From IMG/VR virus record IMGVR_UViG_3300020477_000001, positions 94,302 to 158,301 of that record: a DNA stretch of 64,000 nucleotides; one strand, written 5' to 3'. The DNA comes from a virus. How positions within the stretch are numbered: position 1 is the first letter of the stretch; each line of letters starts with the position of its first letter. The translations under genes and the position numbers were made by a program. Under the pieces are notes generated by a model. It saw only the letters and a program-made list of their open reading frames with translations, had not been told where the DNA came from and did not search any database. Shown in pieces: positions 13,622 through 41,690 of this stretch.

Positions 13622-13653
13622 TTGACCGAAATTAAAAAACCATATAGCATAAT
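13622..13653 (+). promoter_or_regulatory. sigma70-type promoter of the ncRNA/TnpB unit
   Basis: TTGACC-17 bp-TAGCAT, with the ATTAAAAAAC spacer shared by other promoters in this window. Confidence 0.65.
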
Positions 13654-13657
13654 CCCC

Positions 13658-13819
13658 AGTCGCTAACAGACTGCTACGGTGGGTTGCACCGGAAGGGGAG
13701 GGAAACCTCCAAATGCCGAATAGGTATGGTTCGCTTGCGAAGCAGATTCGGAAAGTTCCTAGGGGTCAACGGGGGGAGGATCATCCCGATCCTCCTCCCG
13801 CCCCCAAACCCTACAACAC
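13658..13819 (+). ncRNA. putative tracrRNA/omegaRNA-like scaffold upstream of the TnpB-like gene
   Basis: Hairpins CGGTG-GGTTG-CACCG, GGAGG-GAAA-CCTCC and CCGAAT..TTCG-CTTG-CGAA..ATTCGG, then AGTTCCT (13754-13760, complementary to the repeat core), a long GC stem and terminal CTACAACAC. Confidence 0.65.
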
Positions 13820-13828
13820 ATCTTTAAA

Positions 13829-15337
13829 ATGAAAAAAAAATCTAAACTTCAAAAGGTTGAACAAGAAACTATTCCTGTTAAATACCGAATCTACCCAAAC
13901 CTTAAGCAACGCAAATACCTTGACAGATGCTTTCTTTCCAGCCGAATCGTATGGAACTGGCTGCTAGGAGTACAGAAAGATTATGACCGTGGTCTTACTG
14001 AATGGGTAAAAGAAAAGTATGCCAAAGAGCTACAGAAATTCTGCAAGAAAGAAGGCTTCGAATTAAGCAGTCCATTTGAGCACGAAAAAATAAAAGAATT
14101 AAAAAAAGGAGAAGCGAAAAAATTTCACACGGAAGTCATTCGCCTCAAGAAGGAGGAAGTTTTCCCCTCTGTCTTAGGGATAGAACTCCTTAAAGCCATT
14201 ATTCCTAATGCAGAAGAAGACGAAATCAAGAAGATGATAGTCAACAAAAAGAATCCTTCCGCTTCTAACAAGACTATCAACATCATGGACTTAAAAAGGC
14301 AAGTAAAAAACCTTCGAGAAGATAAACCAATCTTAAACCAAGTCGCATCCCAAGGAATCCATCACGTACCGCTTAACCTAGCTAAAGCTTGGAAGGCGTG
14401 CTACGACAAGAACCGCCCAGATTCCGGTGAGCCTAAATTCAAGAACAAATTCGCGAAGCAGTCATTCACTTTTGACACAGCAAAGCTTCAAGGAAATAAG
14501 TTATTCCTCCCGCCTAAAAGCAAAAACATTTTCATTAAAACAAAAGTCCATCGAGAGATGGAGGGTGAGCAAAAAACAATTACTGTTACTAAAAGCAAAA
14601 CAGGAGAATACTACGCCTCAGTTAACTTTAGGCAAGATGTATTCTTCCCGAAGCCCAAAAGTTTTAGTAAATCGAGCACGGTTGGCATTGACCTAGGAAT
14701 TAAAGATGACTACATCATTATGTCTAACGACATGGGGTCAATCAAAAACCCAAAATTTTTCAAGAAGCATGAGCGCAAAATCGCAATGCTAAATCGAAAA
14801 TTATCGCGCTCCCAGCCGAATAGCAATTCACGCAACAAAGTTCTACACGAGCTTAACCGCGAGTACGAGAAGCTCTCTAAAGCAAGGGAAGATTTTCAGC
14901 ATAAGGTAACACACCAGATCGTAACTAACCCAAACATCAAGGCGGTGGCTGTCGAGGACTTGAATGTGAAGGGCATGACAGCTAAGAACAAACCAAAGGA
15001 GGGCGAAAATGGCCACTACTTACCAAACAATCAGTGCGCCAAACGAGGACAAAACAAAGCCACTCTGGACGCTGGGTTTGGAAGAGTTAGGCAGATGCTT
15101 GACTACAAATGTAAGCGCAATGGCAAAACGTTTGGAAAAGTTGACAGGTTCTTTGCATCCTCCAAAACATGCAACAACTGCGGTCATATCAATAAAGAGC
15201 TCAAAGTTTCCGACCAGTACTGGACCTGCGAAAAATGTGGCGAGCATCACGAGAGGAACTTTAATGCGGCAAATAACGTGCGAGATGAATTTATACGCGC
15301 AAGCAAGCAGAAAAAGAAAACCAAGAACTCGAAATAA
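13829..15337 (+). CDS. tnpB: TnpB/Cas12f-like RNA-guided RuvC protein, RuvC-III D>N
   Basis: KYRIYPN HTH-OrfB start, PKFK, GIDLG (D288), VEDLNVKGM (E376), CNNCG..CEKCG Zn finger, ERNFNAA (N477); no tnpA nearby. Confidence 0.9.
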   Translation: MKKKSKLQKVEQETIPVKYRIYPNLKQRKYLDRCFLSSRIVWNWLLGVQKDYDRGLTEWVKEKYAKELQKFCKKEGFELSSPFEHEKIKELKKGEAKKFHTEVIRLKKEEVFPSVLGIELLKAIIPNAEEDEIKKMIVNKKNPSASNKTINIMDLKRQVKNLREDKPILNQVASQGIHHVPLNLAKAWKACYDKNRPDSGEPKFKNKFAKQSFTFDTAKLQGNKLFLPPKSKNIFIKTKVHREMEGEQKTITVTKSKTGEYYASVNFRQDVFFPKPKSFSKSSTVGIDLGIKDDYIIMSNDMGSIKNPKFFKKHERKIAMLNRKLSRSQPNSNSRNKVLHELNREYEKLSKAREDFQHKVTHQIVTNPNIKAVAVEDLNVKGMTAKNKPKEGENGHYLPNNQCAKRGQNKATLDAGFGRVRQMLDYKCKRNGKTFGKVDRFFASSKTCNNCGHINKELKVSDQYWTCEKCGEHHERNFNAANNVRDEFIRASKQKKKTKNSK

Positions 15338-16441: not shown

Positions 16442-16876
16442 ATGAGGAAAAACAAGATTTCATTAGTAAGCGGCGGATTTGATCCAATTCACGTTGGACA
16501 CATAGAACTCTTTAACAGGGCTAGAGAAATCTCTGACGGGCTATTCGTGATCTTGAATAGTGATAGGTTCCTCACAGAAAAGAAGGGCAAGCCCTTCATG
16601 CAGCAACCAGAAAGAAAAGTCATTATTGAAAACTTACAGATGGTTGACTTGGTTATACCTTCAATAGACGAAGACCAAACGGTTTGTGCTACCCTGCGAA
16701 AACTAGCTAGCCTCAAGGACGCAGTTGACTCTGAATTATATTTCTGCAATGGTGGAGACAGGACGGACGGCGAGAACACGCCAGAACACAAAGTCTGCGA
16801 AGAAGTCGGAATACACAACGTTTATGGATTAGGTGAAAAAATCCAAAGCAGTAGTTGGCTTACGAAAGGGAACTGA
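16442..16876 (+). CDS. cytidylyltransferase-family protein
   Basis: SGGFDPIHVGH (HxGH), NGGDR, KIQSSS. Confidence 0.85.
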   Translation: MRKNKISLVSGGFDPIHVGHIELFNRAREISDGLFVILNSDRFLTEKKGKPFMQQPERKVIIENLQMVDLVIPSIDEDQTVCATLRKLASLKDAVDSELYFCNGGDRTDGENTPEHKVCEEVGIHNVYGLGEKIQSSSWLTKGN

Positions 16877-16898
16877 AACACATAAAATCACCGTCGCG

Positions 16899-17450
16899 AT
16901 GAAGAATTTAACCTGCGATAGCAAGAAGGGGAGAGAGTATGAAGCTCACGAAGAGAAAGCTATACTCTATATACAAGAGAAAAGAAATGTTGTAATAACC
17001 TCTACGAGGTCAGAGCTCAATGAGGAATCAAAAATCCTAGAACAAGATATCTTAATCTCCAAAAAAGATGAAAGAGGAATCTTCAGACTAAGGGCGGTAG
17101 GCGAATTTAAGAACAGGAATGAATTCAAAAGAGGCTCTGGAATCCCGTTGACGCTAGAGAAGCTAAAAGGAGATAGACCTAATGACGGCTACATGATTAG
17201 CCTCAGAAAGCTAAAGAGTGGCCAAGCAATGTCTACGTCCCTAAAGGTTCCTTTCGTTGTTATTGTTAATTTAATGAATGATAAATACATTCTCTGCTGG
17301 AAGCTGACCAACGAGAAAGGTCAATGGGTTAAAAGACCGGAATCACTCAAACAAGAGACGCAGAAGAACATTGCAGGGGGAAATAAGCTTGACGACGTAG
17401 TTTATCTTAAATTATCAGAAACAGCTTTTCAACTTGAAAAAAACTACTAA
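16899..17450 (+). CDS. putative PD-(D/E)xK nuclease
   Basis: G.EYE, QD, GEFKNR pattern; weak match. Confidence 0.35.
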   Translation: MKNLTCDSKKGREYEAHEEKAILYIQEKRNVVITSTRSELNEESKILEQDILISKKDERGIFRLRAVGEFKNRNEFKRGSGIPLTLEKLKGDRPNDGYMISLRKLKSGQAMSTSLKVPFVVIVNLMNDKYILCWKLTNEKGQWVKRPESLKQETQKNIAGGNKLDDVVYLKLSETAFQLEKNY

Positions 17451-17479
17451 TAGGTTAAACTGAGAAAACTTAAAAAATT

Positions 17480-17842
17480 ATGAGCGAAGATAACAATAAC
17501 TCTAATACCGAAGAAACTACAAAAAACTCCAAAGACTTTTCGAGGCAAGAGGAAAACTGGAAAATTATGATTTTCTGTAATATTTCTTGGGAAGAGGCTT
17601 CGAAGGTAGAAGGCGACGACAGGGAGTTCCTTTTGCTGAAGGCTGACGAGCAGAAAGTAGAAGTACTCAAAAGGAAAAAAGAGTTGGCCGAGCAACAGAT
17701 GGCAGAGCAGCAGCAACAGGCCATGATGCAACAGCAAGCCTTGATGCAACAGCAGCAAATGATGCCCCAGCAGATGCCAATGCAGCAGCAAATGCCTATG
17801 AACGGCGGCGGTATGCCTCCCCAGATGCCCCAGAGAGTCTAG
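17480..17842 (+). CDS. protein with Q/M/P-rich low-complexity C-terminal tail
   Basis: AEQQMAEQQQQAMMQQQALMQQQQMMPQQMPMQQQMPM. Confidence 0.6.
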   Translation: MSEDNNNSNTEETTKNSKDFSRQEENWKIMIFCNISWEEASKVEGDDREFLLLKADEQKVEVLKRKKELAEQQMAEQQQQAMMQQQALMQQQQMMPQQMPMQQQMPMNGGGMPPQMPQRV

Positions 17843-17849
17843 AGGGAGC

Positions 17850-18167
17850 ATGGATGGCCATTTAAAGCTTCTAAATCCGAAAAGGATAAGAGTTAAGTCG
17901 CTGTGCTGCTCTTATTGTGATCTTTCTTATAACAGAGAACACTATAAGGCTTTATTCGAGGCTAAAAAATTAATTTATTTTAAATCTCTAGATACAAACA
18001 TATTTAGAGAGAAGGAAATAATTTGCCATGACTGTTTAGTTAATCTAGCAGACAAAGAGTCACTTTCATTCAAAGTAGAAACAGATACACATATTCTTAA
18101 ATTAGATATAGACCCAACGATAGGCAATAAAGGCGACACAGATGACTTTTTAGATGATTTAATATAG
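17850..18167 (+). CDS. hypothetical Zn-finger-like protein
   Basis: CSYC and CHDC pairs. Confidence 0.5.
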   Translation: MDGHLKLLNPKRIRVKSLCCSYCDLSYNREHYKALFEAKKLIYFKSLDTNIFREKEIICHDCLVNLADKESLSFKVETDTHILKLDIDPTIGNKGDTDDFLDDLI

Positions 18168-18205
18168 ACTTGACTTAACTTAAAAAACTCTATATCTTCC
18201 TATGC

Positions 18206-19129
18206 ATGTACAATTTGTGCTGCATATCAAATTCATTAGCCAAAGAGGGTCACAAGTTTCAGACCATGACTTGGGCTAGGTTCTCCAAGTTACCCCGCGA
18301 AGAAGCTATTGCAATCGTTTCTGCTCGCACTCTTAACAATCTGAAAGTTACGCGCAAGATTCTTGAGCAGTGTGCAGAGCATGGCTGGGGCTATCGCGTT
18401 AGCTCTGCTTTATTTCCACTTCTTACTTACGATGTAGCAGAACTCAAAATTCAAGACTACCCAGACTGGATTGACATACAAGCTGCATTTGCAGACTGCA
18501 ATATGTTCATCAATGACAATCGTATCCGCATCTCATGTCATCCAGATCAGTTCAATGTTCTTGCAAGCTTGGGTAAAGCGCAGGTAGAAAAGACTATCAA
18601 AGAACTCAATCATCATGGTTGGTTCATGGATATGCTTGGTGCTCCTCGCGACTATCGCGCACCCATCAACATTCATGTCAACAACACCAAAGGCGAGCCT
18701 TCAGAAATTGCTGACCGTTTTATGCTCAACCTTTACAAGTGCGACCAATCTGTACGCTCACGACTAGTCATAGAGAACGAAGACAAAGGCATCTGGACTC
18801 CAGCGTTACTTGTCGAGCATTTCACCACATTGCCCATTACTTACGACAACCTACACCACAAATGCTTACCCGATGGCCTCACAGAGGATGAAGCCTATCG
18901 CTTGTGCTATAACACATGGCAAGATAACGGTTACTTCAAACCACTGTTTCATTACTCAGAGTCTCACCCAGACAAAAACAATCCACGTAGCCATGCCGAC
19001 ACACCCACCGAGATACCGCTGGACGGCGGACATTCTTTCCCTGTTGACTACGACATAGAACTCAAGTCAAAAGATGACGCCATTAAAGAGATACAAAGAT
19101 TAGAACTGAAGGGGTTAATAAATGGATAA
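18206..19129 (+). CDS. uvsE: UV DNA damage endonuclease
   Basis: YRVSSALFP, ISCHPDQFNVL, ENEDK, DNLHH, HYSES, SHAD, ELKSKD. Confidence 0.9.
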   Translation: MYNLCCISNSLAKEGHKFQTMTWARFSKLPREEAIAIVSARTLNNLKVTRKILEQCAEHGWGYRVSSALFPLLTYDVAELKIQDYPDWIDIQAAFADCNMFINDNRIRISCHPDQFNVLASLGKAQVEKTIKELNHHGWFMDMLGAPRDYRAPINIHVNNTKGEPSEIADRFMLNLYKCDQSVRSRLVIENEDKGIWTPALLVEHFTTLPITYDNLHHKCLPDGLTEDEAYRLCYNTWQDNGYFKPLFHYSESHPDKNNPRSHADTPTEIPLDGGHSFPVDYDIELKSKDDAIKEIQRLELKGLING

Positions 19130-20039
19130 AAAAGAGAAAACAAAATCGACAGATAGAAATATAGTTTGCATAGATTGCGGGGAGGAGTTTACAGGATGCT
19201 ATAGAACCAAGAGATGCAAACCCTGCGCGAAAGAGAGGGCGAACGCTTTAGCTAGAAAGAGGAGGGCAGCTAACCCAGAGAAATATCGCACTTACGATAG
19301 AGCTAGATATGCCGCCTCCCCGAAGAGACGTGAGCAATCGCTTGCAAGTCAGCATCGCAATATAGAGAGAACTAGAGCAACCAGAAGAAAGAGTTACAAT
19401 AATAATAGAGATAAAATTTTAGCCAAAGCAAAATCGGATCGCGAGGCTAACCCAGAGAAATATCGTGAACGGAAGAGGGTTGCTTACCGCGCTAACCCAG
19501 AGAAACACCGAAAAGAGGCAAGAGACCGAAGGGCGGCTAATCCAGAAAAGTACCGCGCCCAAGCTAAGGCTAGGTATCATGCCAACCCGCAAAAATTCCG
19601 CGATCAAAGGAAAAAGTCTTTTGAAAACAACCGAGAGGAAGTAAACAGACGAGCTAAGGAGAAAAGGGCAGCTAACCTAGAGAAATATCGCGCTAGAGAC
19701 AAAGAGGCTGAAAAAAGACGACCTGCTGGGCAAGCACTGGCGAAATCCAATGCGAGAAAAGCACTTAAACAGTCTGCAATCTTACCTACAACAGATTTTG
19801 ATAAAATAAAAAATCTTTACAAAGAAAGGACTAGACTAACAAAAAAAACAGGCATAGAGCATCACGTTGATCATATAATCCAATTAACCCTAGGAGGCGC
19901 ACACCATCAAGACAATTTGCGCGTGATAACAGCAAAAGAAAACCTCACAAGGGGTTACGACTACGACCCCACTCTTGGTGGTGTATGGGCAAACAATGAC
20001 CGAGCAAGGAAAACTAAGAAAAAATTAGGAATCAAATAA
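19122..20039 (+). CDS. HNH endonuclease with N-terminal Zn ribbon and ANPEKYR helical repeats
   Basis: CIDC..CKPC; several ANPEK repeats; HVDHIIQL..GGAH..DNLRVITAKEN. Confidence 0.85.
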   Translation: MDKKEKTKSTDRNIVCIDCGEEFTGCYRTKRCKPCAKERANALARKRRAANPEKYRTYDRARYAASPKRREQSLASQHRNIERTRATRRKSYNNNRDKILAKAKSDREANPEKYRERKRVAYRANPEKHRKEARDRRAANPEKYRAQAKARYHANPQKFRDQRKKSFENNREEVNRRAKEKRAANLEKYRARDKEAEKRRPAGQALAKSNARKALKQSAILPTTDFDKIKNLYKERTRLTKKTGIEHHVDHIIQLTLGGAHHQDNLRVITAKENLTRGYDYDPTLGGVWANNDRARKTKKKLGIK

Positions 20040-20207
20040 TGATAACGCCCCCGAAGATCATAGGTTTTATATGGGTAGCATTCTTAACACTGTTTTACTT
20101 CTTCGCCTCAATAGCTGTTTTTATTGTTACTTCAATCGCTAATATTTTTAAAAAAGAATAAATAAAAAACCTTGACTAAAGTTAAAAAACTCTCTATTAT
20201 ATTACCC

Positions 20208-21089
20208 ATGAAGAGAATTGATACTTATTTCGCAAAAGAGTACGAGGCAGACACACCCACTGCCTCTATGCGTAAGTTGCGCCCAGTGGCTGAAGCAGCT
20301 AGTGCTGCTGGTTACGCAAACATCTTGAAGACATCCTCCAGCGAAGGCGTTAGCGACAAGCTAAAAAAAATTCACAATGCAGATTACGTGGAAGCCTTCT
20401 CTAACGGTACTTATCCGCTCAGCGAAAGCAATGGATGGGGCTGGAGCAAAGAGATTAGGGACGGCGTTTTCAGAATTAACACAGGGCAGCTTGACGCTGC
20501 TAAAGCTGCGTTAAGCAACGGCATTGCAGCAAATGTAGCGCAGGGGTTTCACCATGCTGGAATCGAAAGAGGCTGCGGTTATTGTACCTTCAATGGGTTA
20601 GCACTAGTCGCTAATGAATACAAGACCAAGAAAGTATTCGTTTTAGACTGCGATGAGCATGGAGGCAATGGTACGGCTGAGTTTACCAACATACTGGACA
20701 ACTTATCGCAGGTAACCATCAACGGCTCTAATTTCGGAACCGAAGAGAACCCCCGCAGCCGATGCATTACTCTTCCTCGAATCACTAACCGATTTGAGCT
20801 TTACGAAGATGCACTGGAAGAAGGCTTCTCTATAATGGATAGGTTCGAGCCCGACTTGGTTATCTACCAAGCTGGTGCTGATCCTCACATTGACGATCCC
20901 TTGGGCTCTCTGGGTATGACAACCGAACAAATGTACAACAGAGACAAGAAAGTATTTACGAAGCTCAAAGCTTCAAATATACCGACAATGTTCGTACTGG
21001 CGGGGGGCTATCAAACCCCGATTGAGGAAAAACTTGTACCGCTGCACTTGAACACCTTCAAGGCTGCTCACGAAGTATACAACAATTAA
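20208..21089 (+). CDS. histone deacetylase/acetylpolyamine amidohydrolase-family protein
   Basis: GFHHAG, GYCTFN, LDCDEHGGNGT, QAGADPH.DDPLG, GGY; start moved to the leaderless ATG. Confidence 0.9.
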   Translation: MKRIDTYFAKEYEADTPTASMRKLRPVAEAASAAGYANILKTSSSEGVSDKLKKIHNADYVEAFSNGTYPLSESNGWGWSKEIRDGVFRINTGQLDAAKAALSNGIAANVAQGFHHAGIERGCGYCTFNGLALVANEYKTKKVFVLDCDEHGGNGTAEFTNILDNLSQVTINGSNFGTEENPRSRCITLPRITNRFELYEDALEEGFSIMDRFEPDLVIYQAGADPHIDDPLGSLGMTTEQMYNRDKKVFTKLKASNIPTMFVLAGGYQTPIEEKLVPLHLNTFKAAHEVYNN

Positions 21090-21134
21090 AGGAACAACAA
21101 CACAGCACCAAAGATACTATCTCCGTAGCATACT

Positions 21135-21545
21135 ATGAACATCAAAAGAGAAACAACAACAGCATGGGTAGTTTTCCCAGAATATACCCAATGGGAAAAC
21201 AAGGACAATAAAATGTTCTGGGATGAAGATTACGACCTAGAAGCTGCCGCAGATGCTGCCGTAAAACATTCATGGAAAAAGCCCATAATGACTAGAAAAT
21301 GGCCTCGGCCTGTCACTTTCGGTGACTTTGTGCTTGTTACCAATAGCAATTCAAGCGAGTGGTTTAAGATGATTCGCTGTAAAGGCGGATGTAATGGCTA
21401 TGAGTGGCAAGTCTCATCTTGGGAAGAGGTTTTTGGCGAAGAGGCGGCAGTTAGGAAAGACATGAAAGGATACCTTGAAGACGCTGCTAAAGTAAATGAC
21501 GCCCTAACTGAATTTGAGGAGAAACAATGCACAACGGAAAAGTAG
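21135..21545 (+). CDS. hypothetical protein
   Basis: ORF track. Confidence 0.5.
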   Translation: MNIKRETTTAWVVFPEYTQWENKDNKMFWDEDYDLEAAADAAVKHSWKKPIMTRKWPRPVTFGDFVLVTNSNSSEWFKMIRCKGGCNGYEWQVSSWEEVFGEEAAVRKDMKGYLEDAAKVNDALTEFEEKQCTTEK

Positions 21546-21961
21546 GATTTACTTGTAGCTGCTTTGACCTTTTACACGCTGGCCACTGCTTGATGCTGAA
21601 GGACTGCAAAGAGCAGTGCGACTGGCTTGTCGTTGGCCTCCAAACCGACCCCAGCGTCGATAGACCAGAGAAAAACAAACCAGTCCAGTCACTTGAAGAA
21701 AGAAAGATACAATTAGAAAGCATAAAGTACGTTGATCAAGTGCAAATATACGAAACAGAATCAGACCTAGTAAAACTGATTGAGGATGTCCATCCAGACG
21801 TAAGGATACTCGGTAGCGATTATATAAATAAAAAATTCACTGGCGATCACCTAGACATTCCCGTATACTACCACGAAAGAAACCACGATTGGTCCACTAG
21901 CGATTTAAGAAAAAGAATCAAAGGGGAATGGCCTCACCATACAGACTATCTGGATGACTAA
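21527..21961 (+). CDS. glycerol-3-phosphate cytidylyltransferase-like protein
   Basis: FDLLHAGH, LVVGLQTDPS.DRPEKNKP, STSDLR. Confidence 0.85.
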   Translation: MHNGKVGFTCSCFDLLHAGHCLMLKDCKEQCDWLVVGLQTDPSVDRPEKNKPVQSLEERKIQLESIKYVDQVQIYETESDLVKLIEDVHPDVRILGSDYINKKFTGDHLDIPVYYHERNHDWSTSDLRKRIKGEWPHHTDYLDD

Positions 21962-22189
21962 CCAGCGTACTGCAACACAATAAAAAAACGCGATTAATAA
22001 AATAATGAAAGCCTTTCCTTTAGTTCTTTTAATTTTATTTATTTTTATTTCTGGCCCTTTAGTTACCATTTGGATGCTTAATACTCTATTTTCTGTAGAT
22101 ATTCCATACACTTTGGAAACTTGGGCTGCTGCTTTTGTATTAGGAGCCGCGCTTTACGGTCCTAACGCAAGGAAAGAACTACGCGATAA

Positions 22190-22468
22190 ATGAAGAGAGT
22201 AGATATACAAAATCATATAAATGAACACTACCCAGAAATGGATGAAGATATTCTTTTAGCTGATGGATTCGAGAAAGCTTTTTTGGGGATTGCTAATAGT
22301 TATTGCTCCGCGCCCAGAGCTTGCTATGATGCTGATAAATGTATAGAAATCCTAGAAAAGAGAGACGGAATGAGTCATGAGGAAGCTATTGAATTTTTTA
22401 ATTTTAATGTTTCTTCTGCTTATGTCGGGGAGTTTACGCCAGCATTTATGAAATTGGCGCATAGTTGA
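22190..22468 (+). CDS. conserved phage hypothetical protein
   Basis: ADGFEKAFLG...EEAIEFFNFNV..AYVGE.TP. Confidence 0.55.
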   Translation: MKRVDIQNHINEHYPEMDEDILLADGFEKAFLGIANSYCSAPRACYDADKCIEILEKRDGMSHEEAIEFFNFNVSSAYVGEFTPAFMKLAHS

Positions 22469-22738
22469 TATTTCTTGACACTGTTTTTGTTTATGTTATT
22501 TTTTCGGCCATGAGAATGGCCGACTTCGTGAAAGGGCATAATAAGCTGAAAATTAGCAGTTTTCAGTACCTTTGTGCGTTTCAAGCTGGCCACTTAGATA
22601 AAGACAAGGATGATTCTTATTGTCCTTATACATTTCCGCCGCAAATAGAAGCATATTTTCAAGGTAAAAAAAATAAAAACAAAAAAATTATTAACAAATT
22701 CTTGACTTAATTAAAAATGAATGGAATAGTGGGACTCC

Positions 22739-23692
22739 ATGAGTAGCTACCTAGAAGAAAAGTCGTCGGAAGATTTATATTTTAATGAAATTTCAAGATA
22801 CGATTTAATCTCCTCGGATCGAGAAAAAGAGTTAGCAAAAAAAATAAAAAAAGGCGGAAGAACTGGCAAAAAAGCCCTTGAAGAATTAGTTAATGCTAAT
22901 TTAAGATTAGTCGTAAAGATAGCTGGAGAGTTCAAAGGCTTTGGGTTGGATTCTGGCGATTTAATCAACGAGGGAAACCTCGGATTGATGAGGGCCGCTG
23001 AAAAGTATGATGGCCGCGAAGGCGTTAAGTTTTCAACATATTCCGCGTATTGGATAAGGCAAAGTATCTACAGAGCCCTCTCGAATAAGAGCAGAACAAT
23101 TAGGCTTCCCGTTCATGTTTGCGCTGCTAATTCTAAAATAATTAAATTTATTTCAAAATACCAAGAATCCAACAATGGAAAAAAGCCTTCAGTTAAGCAG
23201 ATAGCGAAAGCCACCAACGCAACAGAAAGATTGGTGTCGGATGTAATAAATGGTGGAGTGACCAACGTAAACTCTCTAGACAGAGAAATCGGAACTGATG
23301 ACAGCGGCTCTAAAGAGACCCTAGGGAACATAATTGAGGACCAAAACGCTGAATCCCCCGACCAAATCTGGAAAAACGTGGAAGATGTTAGTATTCTATT
23401 AAAATTGATACAAAAATTAAATAATAGAGAAAGATACATAATTTGCAATAGATATGGAATAGGAACCAAGACCCCAAAAACTCTAGAAGAAATTGGGGAA
23501 CACTTCGGCGTTACTAGGGAAAGAATAAGGCAGGTACAAAAAGTAGCAATGATGAAGTTAAAAAACTACATGGATAAGTATTATAGATACAAGCCAGAGG
23601 TTGAGGATCATTATGTTGAAGGCCGAAGATTTGTAGCAAGGGTTAAAAGAGAAGAAAAAGCCAGAGAAAAGAAAAAAAAGGTTAAAAAATAG
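22739..23692 (+). CDS. RpoD/RpoS-like sigma-70 factor
   Basis: ANLRLVVKIA, DLINEGNLGLMRAAEKYD, FSTYSAYWIRQ, TLEEIG..FGVTRERIRQ. Confidence 0.92.
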   Translation: MSSYLEEKSSEDLYFNEISRYDLISSDREKELAKKIKKGGRTGKKALEELVNANLRLVVKIAGEFKGFGLDSGDLINEGNLGLMRAAEKYDGREGVKFSTYSAYWIRQSIYRALSNKSRTIRLPVHVCAANSKIIKFISKYQESNNGKKPSVKQIAKATNATERLVSDVINGGVTNVNSLDREIGTDDSGSKETLGNIIEDQNAESPDQIWKNVEDVSILLKLIQKLNNRERYIICNRYGIGTKTPKTLEEIGEHFGVTRERIRQVQKVAMMKLKNYMDKYYRYKPEVEDHYVEGRRFVARVKREEKAREKKKKVKK

Positions 23693-23944
23693 TGTAATTT
23701 TTTTAAGAACTGCTACACTGGTTCAATAATAGAATAACAATCAAACTAAATATGTAAACACAACAACAATAAAGGGGGCGCATGAAAGATTCAGAATTAT
23801 TATTAAGGGAGGTTTCTTTTGAGTTATTAGGCAAGTTGAACGATACTTACGAAAGTGATTCCGAATATGCGGCGGGGCAAAGGTTTGCATACCTTAAATC
23901 AATTTTAATCATTAAAAAGAAACTATCTGAAACTAGGAATAATA

Positions 23945-24514
23945 ATGCCAAGACACCCAATTGATGATGAGGTTTACACGTTCGACGATATAGGCAAAAA
24001 TGCGCCAAGGTTGAGCTACAATCGTAAAATTAAAAAGATCGTCTTCGAGAACTACGAAGCTTTCTGGCTTTTGCTTCACGCCACAAAACACCCAGATATT
24101 ATTAATGGAGTTATCTTTGAAACAGATGACAACTTCAAGGCTCATTATATAAAACAAACAGGGGATAAAGACTTAAATAATCTTTATATAAATAAATTTA
24201 TTTTAAAAGAGATGATGGAGGCTATGAACATAAGCGACCAGCATGATACCTTCCAAGGGTCATTCCAAGATAAGAATATGCACCTCTGGATGACCAACCA
24301 AAATGAATCCGAGAACATGGAGGATGCCAAGGTTCTCAGCAGTAAGTCTCAGTCAGAGCGGCAGAAGAGATTTGATCAAAAGACCAAGGAGAGAGAGCAA
24401 CAAGGAGAAGAAAGAATGAACGCACAAGAATTCCTTGAGTGGTCATCGGAGCATGTAGAAGAAGACTTAAAAAAGAGAATAGATGCAGGAGACACAAATT
24501 GGAAATTCTTATAA
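23945..24514 (+). CDS. hypothetical protein
   Basis: ORF track. Confidence 0.5.
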   Translation: MPRHPIDDEVYTFDDIGKNAPRLSYNRKIKKIVFENYEAFWLLLHATKHPDIINGVIFETDDNFKAHYIKQTGDKDLNNLYINKFILKEMMEAMNISDQHDTFQGSFQDKNMHLWMTNQNESENMEDAKVLSSKSQSERQKRFDQKTKEREQQGEERMNAQEFLEWSSEHVEEDLKKRIDAGDTNWKFL

Positions 24515-25381
24515 TGCAAAAGCCAGACAACAAAATGAAGCGCTGGCTAAACTCTCAGACCAAAGATTTAAAAAAAATTAATTTTAATTCTCTGGTAAAT
24601 TCATTCAAAGACAAGTTTAAGGTCAGTATCAACGATGCTCGTATGTACGTGATGCAATGGGACCACGACAGAAACAAGCATTAAACCGCCGTATTAGATG
24701 CTTGACATATATTAAAAAACTCCTTATCATATATCTACAGACATACCTTAAGATATATATAGGAACAAACAATGGACTTAATATTTGCGGCAATAGTGAT
24801 ATACTTCTTCTGCTTTGCTTTTAAGCAGCTAGTCAAGGATTTGTAAATCGAGGGGGAGCTACAACACAACAAATTGTGAAAACAATAGCCCTGTTTTTAC
24901 GAGCTTTTTACACATTTTTTAAAACACTCACAGTGAACTACAACACTATAAGCTAGTATGGAACTAATAAACACAATAAAGCATTTCAAAAGAATAAAAT
25001 AAAATATTGAAGTGTATTAAAATGGGTTAATGTGGGGTGCATATTATATATATATCCGTCAAGCATTAAATTTAAAAACTATTCACATATTTATTAACAC
25101 TGAAACCACGTCAAGCAAAAACAACAAAAAACAATAAAAAACTTATTAATATTTTCTAAGTCAAGAAAAAACAAACAAAAACTTAAAAAATTATTATTGA
25201 CTATATAGCAAATATATGGGCTTAAAACCAAGAAAAGAAGGAGAAGCAAAAAGAATAGCAACATACATAATATTAATCATATATGGAATTGTTATACTTA
25301 TAGTTTATCTATTAAATAAATTATTTTCTTGACACAGATAAATGGAATTAAAACACAATAAAGAATAGAGGGTTTTTTTTG

Positions 25382-25482
25382 TTGACTTAACTTAAATAAA
25401 TTAGTATAATGTTTCCAAAGGGGCTTCATCACAACAAAGGTAAGATTTTTCTTGACTTAAGTTAAATAATATATTAAAATTT
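25382..25482 (+). promoter_or_regulatory. tandem duplicated sigma70 promoters upstream of the repeat region
   Basis: TTGACT-17-TATAAT at 25382-25410 and a near-copy at about 25453, both followed by TTTCCAAAGGG; no ORF downstream. Confidence 0.6.
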
Positions 25483-25577
25483 TCCAAAGGGATTTTTTTT
25501 ATTTTTTTTAATTCTTATAATAGGAATTATTTTTTTCTTGACAAGTAAATAATGTTTCTTATTCTTATTATGCTTAA

Positions 25578-25795
25578 GGAGCTACACCACGTTATTAACA
25601 CCAACGTACACGGAACTACACCACCCATTTGCCGACGATTGATTTTTAAGGAACTAAAGCACGGATTCGAACTCACGTCTGGAACTACGACACCCATTTA
25701 CCAAGGAGCCGCAACACGTCGAATGCAGTGGTATATTTGTGAACGCAATCGAGCCAAATAATAGGAACTAAATACACGAGGTCGGGAGTTCAGAA
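25578..25795 (+). repeat. mini-array of 13-nt cores GGARCT-NNNN-CAC
   Basis: Cores at 25578, 25612, 25650, 25681, 25705 and 25764, separated by unique sequence. Confidence 0.7.
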
Positions 25796-25800
25796 AAGCC

Positions 25801-25829
25801 TTGACTCATCTTAAAAAACTCTTCATAAT
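25801..25829 (+). promoter_or_regulatory. promoter of the CRISPR array
   Basis: TTGACT-catcttaaaaaactctt(17)-CATAAT; same class as the tnpB-unit promoter. Confidence 0.7.
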
Positions 25830-25925
25830 AGTCCCCAGATTAAGAAACTGATCTTTGACATAGGCACTGCAACACACGAGGCCAAAGACATTCAAGGGAC
25901 TACAACACAACATTATGGTATTCCT

Positions 25926-26476
25926 TAGCAATTTAAGGGACTGCAACACAGTAAGGCGATTATAACATCGCGCTCGACGGTTCGCACTGGTACTAATTTA
26001 AGGGACTGCAACACTGCAACCATGCTAACTAACGTGGTTACACAGCTTCGCACTGGTAGCAATTTAAGGGACTGCAACACTGTTACACACATCGCTGCGA
26101 TGAAGCGGCGGCTTCGCACTGGTACAGATTTTAGGGACTGCAACACCGTATCAGAACGAGATATCGTCCCGCCTTGGGCTTCGCACTGGTAGCAATTTAA
26201 GGGACTGCAACACTTAGTCGAACCGCATAACGTCGAGTGTCTGCTTCGCACTGATAGCAATTTAAGGGACTGCAACACAATGAGGCAGATAATGGAAGGG
26301 GTAGCTAGCTTCGCACTGATAGCAATTTAAGGGACTGCAACACAAAACTGCACCAACAGGAAGCGGAATCACAGTTTTGCACTGGTACTAATTTAAGGGA
26401 CTGCAACACAAGGGGTGACGTAGTGGAAGCGACCACATAAGCTTCGCACTGGTACAGATTTTAGGGACAACAACAC
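25926..26476 (+). CRISPR. CRISPR array: 8 full repeats plus 1 partial, 36 bp (GCTTCGCACTGGTAGCAATTTAAGGGACTGCAACAC), 8 spacers of 29-31 bp, no adjacent cas genes
   Basis: Repeats start at 25926 (partial), 25979, 26045, 26111, 26178, 26243, 26308, 26374, 26441; spacers are unique, lengths 29,30,30,31,29,29,30,31. Confidence 0.92.
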
Positions 26477-26495
26477 AGTAAAGAACCCTACGTAC

Positions 26496-27358
26496 ATATT
26501 TGTGAATGATTTTTGGACAAATAAAGGAACAACAACACTGAATCTCTAGGCGATATTTGTGAATGATTTTAAGGCAAATAAAGGGAACTACAACACTCTG
26601 TTAAAGTCCGTCCAACACGAGGCGGCGAGAATTGATGCCGATCAAAATACTTAATTATTGATTGACTAATTTTTTTGTCGCTCATTTGTGAACGTCAAAG
26701 AGGCAAATAATATAGGGGAATTAAATTAGATATTTTAGATTAATAGGGACTAATTAAACACGATGCTCAATCCCAATATTGTTAATTTATGAATGATTTT
26801 TTGCCAAATAAGGGTTATTTAACATAAGGGAATTTCGTATACAAGAAAAATGTTGCCCCGGAGAAAACACCCCCTTATAAGAAATATATTAAAGGAACTA
26901 AAACACAACAAAAGTGATGAAGAATTTAATTTTAATTATTATTATTTTAATTATTACTGGTTGTTATACAGCCAAGGAAAGAGTAATGCCTCTTGGTCCC
27001 CATGATGATAGCTATGGTAAGAATTGGGTAAGTAATTAAGGAACTGTAACACCAAATCCAGCATGGCGTTTAGATATTTTGGGAACTAAAACACGGGTAT
27101 AGCTCATTTGAAATAGGAACTAGAACACATGTGGTGCGCCATTATATTTGTGAACGCGATTTTTGCAAATAAAGGAACTACAACACCAGCGGTTTCAGAA
27201 GCTATCTGTGAACGCGATTTTTGCAAATAAAGGAACTACAACACCCGTCATGGAATTATAACACTAACTCCTCAGATGGAACTACAACACGTTGAGATAC
27301 TGCTTTCGCGGGAGCTATCTGTGAACACAATTTTTGCAAATATAGGGAACTACAACAC
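26496..27358 (+). repeat. second repeat family (~43 bp) ATATTTGTGAAYG..TTTT.GCAAATAAAGGAACTACAACAC
   Basis: Copies at 26496-26538, 26553-26596, 27144-27186, 27203-27244, 27316-27358 (also 25733-25777; decayed copies near 26684 and 26785). Confidence 0.75.
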
Positions 27359-27510
27359 GACGGGAACTCACGACGGAGAGTTAATCAAGGAACAACAACA
27401 CGAAAACTTTTTCTGTATTCTTGATCTTGTAATGGAACTACAACACTCAAGGGCGGCTCATTTTAATTTAAAATAAAAAAGGGAACTACGACACTTGCTA
27501 TTATTAATTG
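27040..27510 (+). repeat. mini-array of 13-nt cores
   Basis: Cores at 27040, 27082, 27116, 27174, 27232, 27252, 27278, 27346, 27389, 27434, 27482. Confidence 0.75.
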
Positions 27511-27589
27511 TATCTTTAATTAGTGTAATTATTATTGTCTATAAGTTTTTATTGACTGTAATTAAATTGCTCTATATAAAAGGATACAC

Positions 27590-27826
27590 ATGAAAAAAAA
27601 GAAACTATCCCCGCAAGCCCAAATATACGAGAAGGCTTGGAACGACGTAGTGTCCGAAATGAGTGACCATAAAAGAAATATTATTATTAATAATTTTACT
27701 GTTGTCAGTGGTCATCATGTATATGAGAATAAATATGATCAAAGGGTAGCAGATGAAGCAGCTAAGGAAGCCCGTATACGAGGTGACCAACAAATAGAAG
27801 CACTGTTTCCAACTGGCAAGTATTAA
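27590..27826 (+). CDS. hypothetical protein
   Basis: ORF track; upstream TTGACT promoter. Confidence 0.5.
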   Translation: MKKKKLSPQAQIYEKAWNDVVSEMSDHKRNIIINNFTVVSGHHVYENKYDQRVADEAAKEARIRGDQQIEALFPTGKY

Positions 27827-27827
27827 A

Positions 27828-27925
27828 GGTACTACAACACGAGCGGGCACTACAGTGGTAGGAACAACAACACAGTCCCCTGCTATAATCTATGGAACTA
27901 AAGCACGAGTGCATATAGTAGAAAA
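27828..27925 (+). repeat. three-unit mini-array, 33-bp period (13-nt core plus 20-nt spacer)
   Basis: Cores at 27828, 27861 and 27894, directly after a stop codon. Confidence 0.75.
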
Positions 27926-27977
27926 AAATAAAAAAAAATAATTGACTTAAATTAAAAAAAACTTCATACTGGTCGCC

Positions 27978-28220
27978 ATGAAGAGAAAAGGTTCTGGCAA
28001 AACAAAGGGAGCGACCAGCTTCGTACAAGTGACACTGGGAGAGCTCAACCGCGTACTCAAAGAGGGTGCAGTGGTTGTGGTCAGTCGCAAGTACGCCGAG
28101 CAACTGGAGCTCGATTCTAAGCCCATGTATTCTAATTACAAGAATCTTGAGGCCCACTCAAACCAAATCGATGTCAAGATCGATGAACCGGAGGACACAA
28201 TTGATTTCAAAGTAGAATAA
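27978..28220 (+). CDS. hypothetical protein
   Basis: ORF track; leaderless promoter architecture. Confidence 0.6.
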   Translation: MKRKGSGKTKGATSFVQVTLGELNRVLKEGAVVVVSRKYAEQLELDSKPMYSNYKNLEAHSNQIDVKIDEPEDTIDFKVE

Positions 28221-28293
28221 TGGAATAACAACACGAACGAAAAGACTTCATAAAAGTCTTGACCTAACTTAAAAAACTATATAATATATCCCT

Positions 28294-29253
28294 ATGACGA
28301 ACGAACGAACTATCCCCAACCCTTTCGAGGGTATCATTGGCCAAAAGAAGGCTAAGAAACAGATAAACTTTTACAGGCGAGGCTACAATGCCACAGGTAT
28401 TCTTCCTCACCTATTGTTTGTTGCTCCGAAAGGATGCGGCAAGACCATGCTGGCTAAGGCTGTTAAAGACACTCTTATGTCCAGAGAGAACCCAGAGAAA
28501 GCTAAGAAGTTTCTGGAGATTAACTGCTCTACGCTTCGCAACGTCAAGCAGTTCTTTAATCAAATCATGATTCCTCATGTTCAACACGAGGAAGTCACAA
28601 TCTTATTCGATGAATCCTCTGAGATTCCTCACGATGTTTCGATGGCACTGCTTACGTGCTTAAACCCGAACAAGCATAATCGTAACGAGTTCTCTTACGA
28701 GGACTATACGGTAGAGATTGACTTCTCGCGACACACTTTCATGTTCGCCACCACCGAGGTGCAGACCATGTTCCACGCTCTTATTGACCGATGCAAGCGC
28801 ATCGATCTACAGGAGTACTCTTTAAAGCAACTCGGACAGATTCTCAAGGTTAACCTTGAGGGTATCGAGTTCGAGGAGGGTCTGATGCCCGACATCGCCT
28901 CTACTCTTAGGGGCAATGCTCGTAAAGCAGTTCAGACTGCCAACGACATTTCCTCGTACATGGCGGCGGAGGAGCGAGGTTACTTCACTCGCAAGGACTG
29001 GAACCTGTTCAAAGATGAGCTAGGAATCGAGCCACTCGGATTGTCTCCGATTGAGATTCAACTCTTAGAGATTCTCAACGACAAACCAGAGTGCAGCTTG
29101 ACCTACCTGTCAGCCAAGACTGGCATGACCAAGGCGGCAGTACAGAGGGACATTGAGATGTACCTTCTCAAGAACGATCTAATGGAGATCGGCACTGGCG
29201 GACGCAAGATCACCAACAATGGACGTGAGACCTTGGAGGTCATCAATGGATAA
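28294..29253 (+). CDS. ruvB: Holliday junction branch migration ATPase, RuvB-like
   Basis: IIGQ, HLLFVAPKGCGKT, LFDE, FATTE, LIDR, RGNARKA, C-terminal winged helix E.YL..GRKIT. Confidence 0.8.
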   Translation: MTNERTIPNPFEGIIGQKKAKKQINFYRRGYNATGILPHLLFVAPKGCGKTMLAKAVKDTLMSRENPEKAKKFLEINCSTLRNVKQFFNQIMIPHVQHEEVTILFDESSEIPHDVSMALLTCLNPNKHNRNEFSYEDYTVEIDFSRHTFMFATTEVQTMFHALIDRCKRIDLQEYSLKQLGQILKVNLEGIEFEEGLMPDIASTLRGNARKAVQTANDISSYMAAEERGYFTRKDWNLFKDELGIEPLGLSPIEIQLLEILNDKPECSLTYLSAKTGMTKAAVQRDIEMYLLKNDLMEIGTGGRKITNNGRETLEVING

Positions 29254-30332
29254 AGTTACTGCGGAACAGCTTAAGAGAGAGCCATCGGCTCCCTTCGATA
29301 GAATCGTTCGTCATATGGAGGATTTCCTCGCTGCGCGGATGTGCAGCGAGGAGTCCTTCAACCAAGTGAAGCGTAACACCTACAAGTACACAGACTGCGG
29401 CGCTTGGATTGACGAGGACGAGAACGGTATTACTGTAGGAAGTATTGTCGAAGGAGCAGACTACGGAACCTCGACTTACGTTTTAATCTACCCATTCAAG
29501 ATTCAAGAATTCTGGGATGCATTGAATGAAGTAGAGATGGAGGCTAAACAAATCTGGGAGGAGGTCAATGGAGAAGAACAATGACATAGACTTCGCAATA
29601 TTAAACCAAAAAAGATATGAAAAATATAAAGGAATTAATTTAAGTACTTGTTTCTTAGTACATGAATCAGAAAAGGGACACATGAAGGACTGGACTTGTA
29701 TCACGCGGAATGATGACTTCTTTAGAGTAAACATTATCGCAGGTATGGTCTCAATGATGAGAGGAGAAACAGAGTACGACATTACGGGACCAGCAACAAA
29801 TATACTAAACCCCGTACTAGGATTACAGAACAAAGAAGATTTGGAAAAATGTAAATTCTCTGATATAAAGAAGTTTATGAAATGGAGAATCAATAAAGAT
29901 AACTATATAGAATAAGATTATGAATAAGAAAGATACAAATACATATGTTGTTAAGATGACCGAAACCAGCAACGGAGTGGTCGTAGACTCAGTGCAGCAA
30001 CTCGTACAAGTGCTCGGTGTAGATCGTGAGAAGTATAAGACTATCGACAAGCGCGACTTCACCAGCAAGCATCTCAATACTGTTACTAAATTCACAGCGC
30101 GTTAATGAAGAAGTCTCACTGGAAAGAAGGTCTTGAAATACCCAAGCCACCAAAGGGAATCACTCACGCCCAAATAAAGTGTGGCAAGAAGAAGTCTACC
30201 GTAACTATAAACGACTTCGACACTTTCCGAGGGGTAGAGGGAATGGTGCGCTGGGGTAAGCAAAAGAAGAACAGTAAAACAATTGAATTAATAGGAGAAG
30301 AATTCTTTTGGGACGGATTTAAAGTAGAATAG
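29246..30332 (+). CDS. run of four small hypothetical genes (29246-29584, 29568-29915, 29920-30105, 30105-30332)
   Basis: ORF track; overlapping starts and stops. Confidence 0.5.
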
Positions 30333-30400
30333 GAACTACAACACAACATAATATTCGCGACTCGCAAGGGAACTACAACACGTTCAAGGACTTGGTATAA
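30332..30400 (+). repeat. two 13-nt cores GGAACTACAACAC at a stop codon
   Basis: 30332-30344 and 30369-30381, 24-nt spacer. Confidence 0.7.
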
Positions 30401-39282: not shown

Positions 39283-41690
39283 ATGACAAACGAAGAAGCA
39301 ATGGAAATAGTATTAGAGGCAGCAAAACACAGGGCGAGTATTCTCCCACCTCAAAACGATACAGGAAAGAAAATCCTAGCAGCGTCTCGGCAACTACAAG
39401 CCCGATTACAATGGCAAAAGCTCGCCGCGTATGACGCAAAGTACGCATCACATTATTTAATATTGGAGGACTAAATGAAGTATCAAGGAAACATCAAAAT
39501 TATAGTAGAAGGCGAGGACAATTATTCTCGCGCAACCGAACACTGGCTTCACTCAATCGTGCAAGAGGGTGTTGGGGAGCAATGCGACGAAACAGGGCTA
39601 TCTATCGTTGGCGCATGGTGCGTTGATGTTAAAAAATTGGAGGACTAATAATGAAAGAAGATAATATAACTTATTTAGAAATGGCGCGAATAGCAATGGC
39701 TACAATCCCAGAAGATTTAGCCGAAGGAATGGACATATCCGACGATGAACTAATTCGCTTACGCGATCAACTACATATTTATTTAGATTGGGAGGTTAAA
39801 GAATGAAGGTAAAAGATATTATTGAAACACTAAAGAAGAACTATAATCCAGAAGATAGTCTGGTTGTAGCTACATGGGACAAAGAACAGTTTGCTCCCTT
39901 ACTGGAGGAAGATGACGATTGGGCCGAGATTGCTCAATCCTGTATGGACGAAGTGGATTGGGCTGATATAAGCCAAGACATTATCGAACACATTCAATCA
40001 CACCAAGGCACTCATTACGGAGATAGTATCTTTGAAGGAGTCGAGGAATAGTTCTTGACTTATTAAACCAAGTCTTTATAATCAAACGCATGATGACCAA
40101 AGAAGAATGCAGAGAACAAATTCAAGAGGATATACTTACATTTATGGATGATAGGTTTGTGGAAGATGGTTGGGATGCCGAGTTCTTGAAAGACAATCTT
40201 TGCCAAATCGTAGTTGATAACTTTAAGAAATTGGAGGACTAAATGAAAACATACGAAGTAGAATTCAAATCAACAACCTATCGCACCTACCATGTGGAGG
40301 CTCCAAGCAAAAAGTTTGCAGAGGAGGCAGCGATAGAAGAATTACAAATGGATACCGAAGTTAGTAACGCTTGGGTTGAGAACGCAGAAGTTTCCGCTAT
40401 CACCGCAGATGTGGATGTGTGTGGTAACAAATTGGAGGATTAAATGAAACTAAACATAGAAATTAGAACTCACGACAAGGATCAAATACCTTCTATAATC
40501 GAGCGTATCGCTAACGATGTAGAGTACGATTTGTTGGCATATAAAAACAACGGTAGAGCGATCATCAGCGCAGACATTGGAGTAGTTGTTGATGGTGATT
40601 TAGTTGGGCATTATAGAATGGAGGAGGACTAAATGAGACGACTAAAAAAAGCCAAAGAAAACCTTTCGCGTACTGAAAGACTACACCGCATTGTTACCCG
40701 TGGATTCTTCAAGGGCGACGGACACCAACGTAAAGGTCGAACCATTAGAATGTGGCCTAGCTTTCACGAAAACGACGAAAATGTTGAATTAGTTTTTGAT
40801 ATTCTTTCTGAAGAACTAGACAAATTATTAAAAGAATAATCCTTGACTTATTAACCTAAATCTCTATAATCAAACGCATGACGAAAGAAAAACAAGCTAT
40901 ATTAGAAGTATTGGAATACTATGCTAATAATGAAGCGAACCTAACTTCTGAATTCGCAAGAGAACACATCGCAGACGCTATTATGGAAGCTCAGAAACAA
41001 GTATGGACTGAAGCATTACTCGACGTAGGCATTGAACTAACAACAAAGGAGGAGGACTAAATGAAATACAATCACGCATACGATATCGCCTTCTCTCTTG
41101 AGTCTAATGATGAATATGGAGAGGATGTAACACCAGATATGTTGAGGACGGCATTACTTAACAGAATCAAAGACTTGGATAGAGCAAACGAATGGGGAGA
41201 GATTCACGCGAACTCTGTACCTTTTGATACATACGAAGTGGAGGAGGATTAAATTATGAAAACAGAACTCATTGAAGTTTACATTTATTACTACGAAAAT
41301 ACTCCCTACGATGAGGTGGAAGCCTACCTCGCAGAGAAGCAGAAGGTCAATGGCAAAAAATGGGCTGACGAAGCATGGGATTTGTACGCTAAATGGAGCA
41401 GCGGAAAATTAGGAGATTAAATTATGGGATACAAGATACTAGACGTTAAAGCAGACATTCACGAAGATGTTGAGAAGTATATGGACTCTTGCATTAACGG
41501 GAACGAGATCAACCCGATATTGGGTCAGACCATTTTGGAGGATATGTGTGACATTGTAGACAAACACTTTGAGAAGATAGAAAGGTAATTAATAATGTTA
41601 GAATTAATTCACGGAGGGGCTATTGTTGTATCACTAATGATAGTCGCGTACATACAAGACTTGAACGACGAAGAAGAAGAAGGCAAATAG
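39283..41690 (+). CDS. chain of about 12 small acidic hypothetical genes joined by GGAGGAYTAAATG-type junctions
   Basis: ORF track (39283-39474, 39803-40051, 40243-40443, 40444-40632, 40633-40839, 40878-41060, 41061-41252) plus sub-60-aa ORFs in between. Confidence 0.6.

Follow-up and report, generated by a model that had tools for sequence, protein, structure and literature searches.

A degenerate CRISPR array in an uncultured phage as the probable guide cassette of an adaptation-free TnpB-derived system

Why would a phage carry a CRISPR array whose repeat variants are interleaved along its length, and which protein, if any, would use the guides it encodes? The array in question lies in a virus record of 158,301 bp, within its final 64 kb; the record has direct terminal repeats, is rated complete and represents an uncultured phage. 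We refer to this whole 64-kb stretch as the window, and all coordinates are window positions unless another contig is named. The phage is remote from cultured phages, its terminase being only ~24% identical to theirs. A search of GenBank phages with the array region and 24 kb of the window returned nothing matching, a tRNA scan of the window found no tRNA, and Rfam yielded nothing either at gathering thresholds or at E≤10, with no CRISPR repeat family matched on either strand.

Measurement of the repeats confirmed an array of nine repeats, the first of which (R0) is 5'-truncated, and eight unique spacers of 29–31 nt. It thus has the make-up of a CRISPR array, with at least three direct repeats of 23–50 nt separated by regular, unique spacers of similar length. 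The regular geometry of 36 + 29–31 bp given in a first-pass annotation of this DNA was borne out, with 36-nt repeats and spacers that measure 29, 30, 30, 31, 29, 29, 30 and 31 nt from S1 to S8, in units of 65–67 nt. Below, the 3' 13 nt of the repeat are called the handle. The array and its immediate surroundings comprise the following parts:

25801–25829, + strand: sigma-70-like promoter directly 5' of the array (10 of 12 consensus matches, 17-nt spacer; a consensus match only)
25863–25875 and 25896–25908, + strand: two bare 13-nt handles with short guides, in the interval from promoter to R0 (part 25863–25913)
~25926–25949, + strand: R0, a 5'-truncated repeat with its 3' 24 nt recognisable
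25979, 26045, 26111, 26178, 26243, 26308, 26374 and 26441 (starts), to 26476, + strand: R1–R8, eight full 36-nt repeats in four middle forms
25950–25978, 26015–26044, 26081–26110 and 26147–26177, + strand: spacers S1–S4
26214–26242, 26279–26307, 26344–26373 and 26410–26440, + strand: spacers S5–S8
26477–26596, + strand: terminal ~20-nt guide, then two hairpin-type repeat units with handle ends of the same kind
26497–26539 and 26554–26596, + strand: the hairpin-type units 3' of R8

With bare handles before R0 and hairpin-type units after R8, the putative transcription unit is larger than 25926–26476. The spacers have a mean GC content of 49.3%, compared with 39.6% for the genome (P=0.004), which suggests either a foreign origin or selection for stable pairing. 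A 117-codon frame that runs across the array on the minus strand was dismissed as an artefact of the repeats, since the majority of unit lengths are not divisible by three.

The repeats fall into four forms according to their middle part: R1 and R7; R0, R2 and R4; R3 and R8; and R5 and R6. These forms and their interleaved order exactly reproduce the first-pass annotation, and R1 and R7 further differ from the other repeats at repeat positions 2 and 5. Two to four linked positions separate the recurring forms from one another, so common descent and not parallel mutation accounts for their recurrence. Only one pair of neighbouring repeats shares a form, which is what a random order gives by permutation, and a fully blocky order would have a probability of 0.009 under the same permutation. 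The array is therefore not one of near-identical repeats with contiguous or trailer-end variants, and its order is indistinguishable from random. That this order is no blockier than a random shuffle agrees with the non-polar origin proposed earlier.

A search of IMG/VR with the repeat end recovered one other contig, of 73 kb, with 70–82% nucleotide identity in places. On this second phage contig the repeat family recurs in two mini-arrays, whose spacers span 9–33 nt and no two of whose repeats are alike, and the contig allowed repeat conservation to be compared between phages. In the window, the 3' 13 nt are identical in R0–R7 and carry two central changes in R8. The 5' 23 nt of this array contain 22 differences in 184 positions. 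Across 16 full repeats from the two phages, 53 of 368 cells differ at positions 1–23 compared with 7 of 208 at positions 24–36 (Fisher P ~1e-5, the cells not being independent), making the handle the most constrained part of the repeat, its conservation exceeding that of the 5' 23 nt fourfold. In these 16 repeats 12 of the 23 5' positions are nevertheless invariant, and the variable ones show mostly transitions with a hot spot at positions 15–17, so the 5' part is not free to drift. The earlier suggestion that selection acts only on the 3' end was accordingly too strong.

Comparison of the two phages also bears on how the array was assembled. The repeat at 26374 is identical at 36 of 36 positions to a repeat in the second phage, whose adjoining spacer is unrelated. 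All four allele combinations occur at 14 site pairs when the repeats of both phages are pooled, and at none within this array. Among the spacers, the neighbours S6–S8 are 50–52% identical when aligned in register from the handle, a level reached in 0 of 3,000 shuffles (P<3e-4), and 7-mers common to the array spacers occur on the same strand only. The likeness of S6–S8, together with the repeat form common to both phages, points to unit duplication and shuffling; alternatively, S6–S8 may be three guides against homologous sites. The order of the forms fits an origin by unit duplication and divergence combined with exchange of units between relatives. Of the recombination between relatives that had been postulated, the shared 26374 repeat supports either exchange or shared ancestry.

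We found no match to Cas1 (PF01867) or Cas2 (PF09827) in the complete phage genome with profiles whose controls matched, which extends to the whole genome the earlier statement that the window has neither gene. Cas9 (TIGR01865) is likewise absent from the phage genome. The description of the array as an orphan did not hold, as the same phage encodes a candidate effector of the TnpB/Cas12 family with a RuvC domain, as expected of a type V-like, TranC-like system:

13829–15337, + strand: TnpB/Cas12f-like effector gene, 502 aa, with PF07282, PF01385 and PF12323 above cut-offs

This gene is single-copy in the complete genome and lies 10.6 kb upstream of the array. Its lineage comprises nine protein clusters with 39–95% identity, in all members of which the RuvC-I Asp and the RuvC-II Glu are kept. 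At RuvC-III, canonical TnpB has DRD and 10 of 10 lineage members have ERN, an Asp-to-Asn replacement that falls at Asn477 of this effector, so that the RuvC catalytic triad is not intact. Because the RuvC-III Asp is Asn in every lineage member seen, binding without cutting, and hence silencing, appears likelier than cleavage; the Asp-to-Asn change alone is no proof that cleavage has been lost. An effector-based search for further loci in IMG/VR and JGI metagenomes gave only generic TnpBs of <40% identity among the matches listed. Between the effector gene and the guide-rich region, at 22739–23692, lies a phage gene for a full-length member of the sigma-70 family that has regions 1.2, 2, 3 and 4.

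Between a dedicated promoter and the effector gene lie ~165 nt of structured RNA, and no terminator intervenes ahead of the start codon:

13623–13828, + strand: promoter (13623–13652) and predicted structured, tracrRNA-like scaffold RNA
13754–13759, + strand: anti-handle of the scaffold RNA
13677–13691, + strand: hairpin with a conserved 5-nt loop at 13682–13686
13811–13819, + strand: handle-like tail

An RNA homologous to this scaffold lies 5' of the effector gene in the second phage, and alignment of the two gave a consensus fold with nine compensatory pairs, including the conserved-loop hairpin. In this phage, the six bases that open the majority handle are perfectly complementary to 13754–13759. 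The form of handle found in the array is one base off the majority form and pairs with 13754–13759 through one G–U wobble. In the relative, the anti-handle has C for U, and nearly all its handles have G at handle position 3. This matching base difference between anti-handle and handle is suggestive of docking, as one difference in one comparison. The scaffold therefore has the character of a tracrRNA-like RNA with an anti-repeat, the pairing being short (6 nt). Duplex energies of the whole repeat with the scaffold RNA were not better than those of shuffles (z about -2 to +1). We did not rely on an 8-nt perfect complement of repeat positions 1–8 at 13736–13743 that the relative's RNA lacks at the homologous position. 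The handle-like tail lies just 5' of the start codon (13811–13831), and its 'guide' position would cover that codon. With no terminator in the scaffold RNA and the tail adjoining the start codon, a single transcript may comprise both the scaffold and the leader of the effector mRNA, and autoregulation of the effector through the tail is possible.

The second phage contig supplies one independent case in which the effector lineage and the repeat family occur together, one mini-array there being followed, on the same strand and after 1.4 kb, by a gene of the lineage. The proposed link between array and effector across 10.6 kb rests on ~6 nt of complementarity, the one matching base difference and this co-occurrence in two contigs. 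The mini-array at ~2990–2880 of the related phage (contig L009, minus strand) has its start immediately 3' of a tRNA-like gene, so tRNA processing could set the 5' end of the first crRNA there; three further tRNA-like genes lie between this mini-array and the effector. A third contig (L292, IMGVR_UViG_3300025096_002977) carries on its minus strand 18 bare handles, all on one strand and in two clusters, and no effector was found within the 12 kb examined. The two related contigs come from IMG samples 3300025769 and 3300025096. Two of three matches to a double-handle pattern turned out to be coding repeats and were discarded.

Copies of the handle extend well beyond the array. A degenerate 13-mer representing the repeat 3' end gave 34 matches in the window at ≤1 mismatch, all on the + strand, with 0.17 expected. 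Across the genome at ≤2 mismatches there are 45 on the + strand and 2 on the minus strand, ~40 of them within 16869–30381. Beyond the regular units, ~35 bare-handle guides are scattered near the array. Strong sigma-70-like promoters on the + strand cluster at 24700–28300 (24702, 25382, 25452, 25538, 25801, 27942 and 28259), a promoter-dense stretch of non-coding DNA with 32% GC. A consensus scan found no minus-strand promoter-like site within 25900–26500. The promoter, the strand bias and the conservation of the 3' end agree, at the level of sequence, on an orientation with the guide 3' of the handle. The + strand, type V-like orientation favoured earlier is likewise in line with the co-oriented handles, the upstream promoter and the complementarity to a + strand scaffold RNA.

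Three observations concern individual handles in this region. After the handle at 25650–25662 comes a short guide (25650–25680 with its handle) that runs antisense to the conserved tRNA T-arm; it matched 44 of 176 predicted tRNAs, with a best E value of 8e-4, and the array spacers gave 10-nt chance matches only against the same 176. The sequence downstream of the handle at 21091 (21104–21133) perfectly matches 19 nt of the minus strand at ~40016–40034 (E 2e-4), a match that begins at guide position 6 and has both partners in the same phage. At 26917–27039, a 40-codon frame sits precisely between two handles and has, by eye, a lipoprotein-signal-like hydrophobic start followed by Cys.

Searching the spacers against viral and host databases was the check that the first-pass annotation had proposed, and no protospacer was found in the searches made, which were narrow: the phage's own genome, GenBank phages, plasmids, two 22-mers in IMG/VR, 400 gammaproteobacterial genomes and the comparison loci of this analysis. 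Self-targeting within the phage's own genome was rejected, with 10 matches at ≤2 mismatches compared with 3–8 in shuffles. BLAST against GenBank phages and plasmids (E up to 10) gave chance-level matches only, exact 22-mers of spacers 3 and 4 gave none in IMG/VR, and the 400 gammaproteobacterial genomes gave 15 matches at E≤0.05 where ~20 were expected. No target of the array spacers was found in the comparison loci. A 14-mer of the repeat, a pattern too short to inform, gave only single chance matches among the matches listed when searched against bacterial genomes.

Together, these results make it probable that the array is the guide-RNA cassette of an adaptation-free, TnpB-derived system of the phage, type V-like and akin to TranC and Cas12r. 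The array would be transcribed on the + strand from the promoter at 25801–25829, and each unit would give a crRNA with the 13-nt 3' handle of the repeat as its 5' part and the 29–31-nt guide as its 3' part. The handle would dock on the structured RNA encoded just 5' of the effector gene, its first six bases pairing with 13754–13759, and the hairpin's conserved loop (13682–13686) may serve as a partner for the CAAC of the handle. The resulting ribonucleoprotein is predicted to bind matching DNA, more likely without cutting. New units would arise not through Cas1–Cas2 but by duplication and divergence, and units would recombine both inside one phage and among related phages. It is this process that would leave the repeat forms interleaved, with selection preserving the handle together with a small number of blocks in the 5' part.

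The same array could be a decaying relic, acquired from a relative with a working system and now unused, its repeats drifting. The heterogeneous repeats, the truncated first repeat and the changed last handle are compatible with such decay, as are the lack of a target in the narrow spacer searches and an array handle form one base off the majority handle of the phage. We consider this unlikely, given that the handle is identical in eight of nine repeats while the 5' part varies, that the promoter consensus is intact and that the deviant handle base is still wobble-compatible with the anti-handle of this phage. The variation is, moreover, patterned and not random: some blocks never change, most substitutions are transitions and positions 15–17 form a hot spot. 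The relative, too, keeps similar arrays.

Two further explanations would have the array act through host proteins. In one, which the first-pass annotation had raised, a host Cas9 would use the array as a type II-C-like one transcribed from the minus strand; the array would then come from the host or hijack its enzyme. The spacers of ~30 nt suit this reading, as does the reverse complement of the repeat, which is reminiscent of type II-C repeats; tracrRNA pairing would in that case fall to the conserved end. Minus-strand transcription of type II-C arrays often starts from promoters inside the repeats; here the consensus scan found no minus-strand promoter-like site within the array. The phage genome is devoid of Cas9, all ~45 handles point the same way as its genes and promoters, a + strand RNA of the phage carries the complement of the + strand handle, and neither strand matched an Rfam CRISPR repeat family, all of which make this alternative very improbable. 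We give equally little credence to an RNA decoy (an anti-CRISPR RNA), in which repeat mimics would soak up a host Cas protein and the spacers would be irrelevant. Many solitary copies of the repeat end do lie in an early region of the phage with strong promoters, as a decoy might require, but a matching effector and scaffold RNA are supplied by the phage itself, the array spacers are regular, unique and enriched in GC, and we know of no host repeat that matches.

The locus, read as a guide cassette of the phage's own TnpB-derived system, can be compared with systems described before. In Cas12r-CRISPR of Thermus Lalka phages, a TnpB-like effector is accompanied by a short degenerate-repeat array and no adaptation genes (bioRxiv 10.64898/2026.04.20.719267). 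Both systems have a phage-encoded TnpB-like effector, degenerate repeats, unique spacers of ~30 nt with odd short ones, and no adaptation genes, a likeness judged on system features. Cas12r has its array directly 3' of the gene, is an active nuclease and needs no tracrRNA (bioRxiv 10.64898/2026.04.20.719267), whereas the present locus has its array 10.6 kb away, a scaffold RNA before the gene, a RuvC-III Asn and ~35 bare-handle guides. In TranC, effectors of TnpB size use a transposon RNA split into tracrRNA and crRNA, with arrays of 3–20 repeats of 32–38 bp, no associated adaptation proteins and some representatives in phage genomes (bioRxiv 10.64898/2026.03.27.714800; 10.1101/2025.09.28.678669). 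The locus shares with TranC the effector size, the split RNA, the small array, the absence of adaptation proteins and the phage genome; TranC differs in having active nucleases and homogeneous-enough arrays beside the gene, and 'TranC-like' here assigns no numbered clade.

A parallel for the likely mode of action is TldR, a group of nuclease-dead TnpB-like repressors in phages whose natural guides bind DNA and repress (bioRxiv 10.1101/2023.11.30.569447). Like TldR, the effector is a phage-carried, TnpB-derived protein with a damaged RuvC site. TldR has a single adjacent guide RNA, whereas this locus has an array plus many guides in trans and one catalytic residue replaced; with guides that are many and remote, it is not a nuclease-dead TnpB with a single adjacent promoter-targeting guide. 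Altae-Tran et al. (PNAS 2023, PMC10691335) report, in the parts of their paper considered here, Cas12f/V-U arrays without Cas1/Cas2, for which serial duplication of guide-RNA segments was proposed, and inactivated lineages proposed to be regulators. The arrays in those parts lie within 10 kb of the gene and mostly downstream, and interleaved repeat forms common to different phages are not described in them (PMC10691335). Virus-borne mini-CRISPR arrays are also short, have no adaptation genes and are thought to act in virus–virus conflicts (Nat Commun 2019, PMC6858448); they borrow host Cas machinery and have host-type repeats, whereas this phage brings its own effector. The locus is set apart by its remote array, the altered RuvC-III site in combination with an array, a very short handle that suffices, and interleaved repeat forms common to phages.

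Only recently have small-array systems derived from TnpB, and devoid of adaptation genes, been described in phages. The present locus provides clues to how such arrays gain or change guides, in repeat forms that are common to phages with different spacers, in an order without polarity and in three neighbouring spacers that look like diverged copies. As a tentative extension, for which we claim only a modest chance of being right, the array and the ~35 bare-handle guides may give a lytic-type phage a hard-wired silencing programme with many guides, in which a non-cutting TnpB-derived protein is loaded in trans through a 13-nt handle, and guides come from unit duplication and divergence, as S6–S8 suggest, and from swaps between co-infecting relatives, not from spacer capture. 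If so, guides would evolve here without any adaptation machinery. If the effector binds without cutting, the phage would possess a natural, CRISPRi-like tool for multiplexed use whose handle is very short, of practical interest for the design of compact guides.
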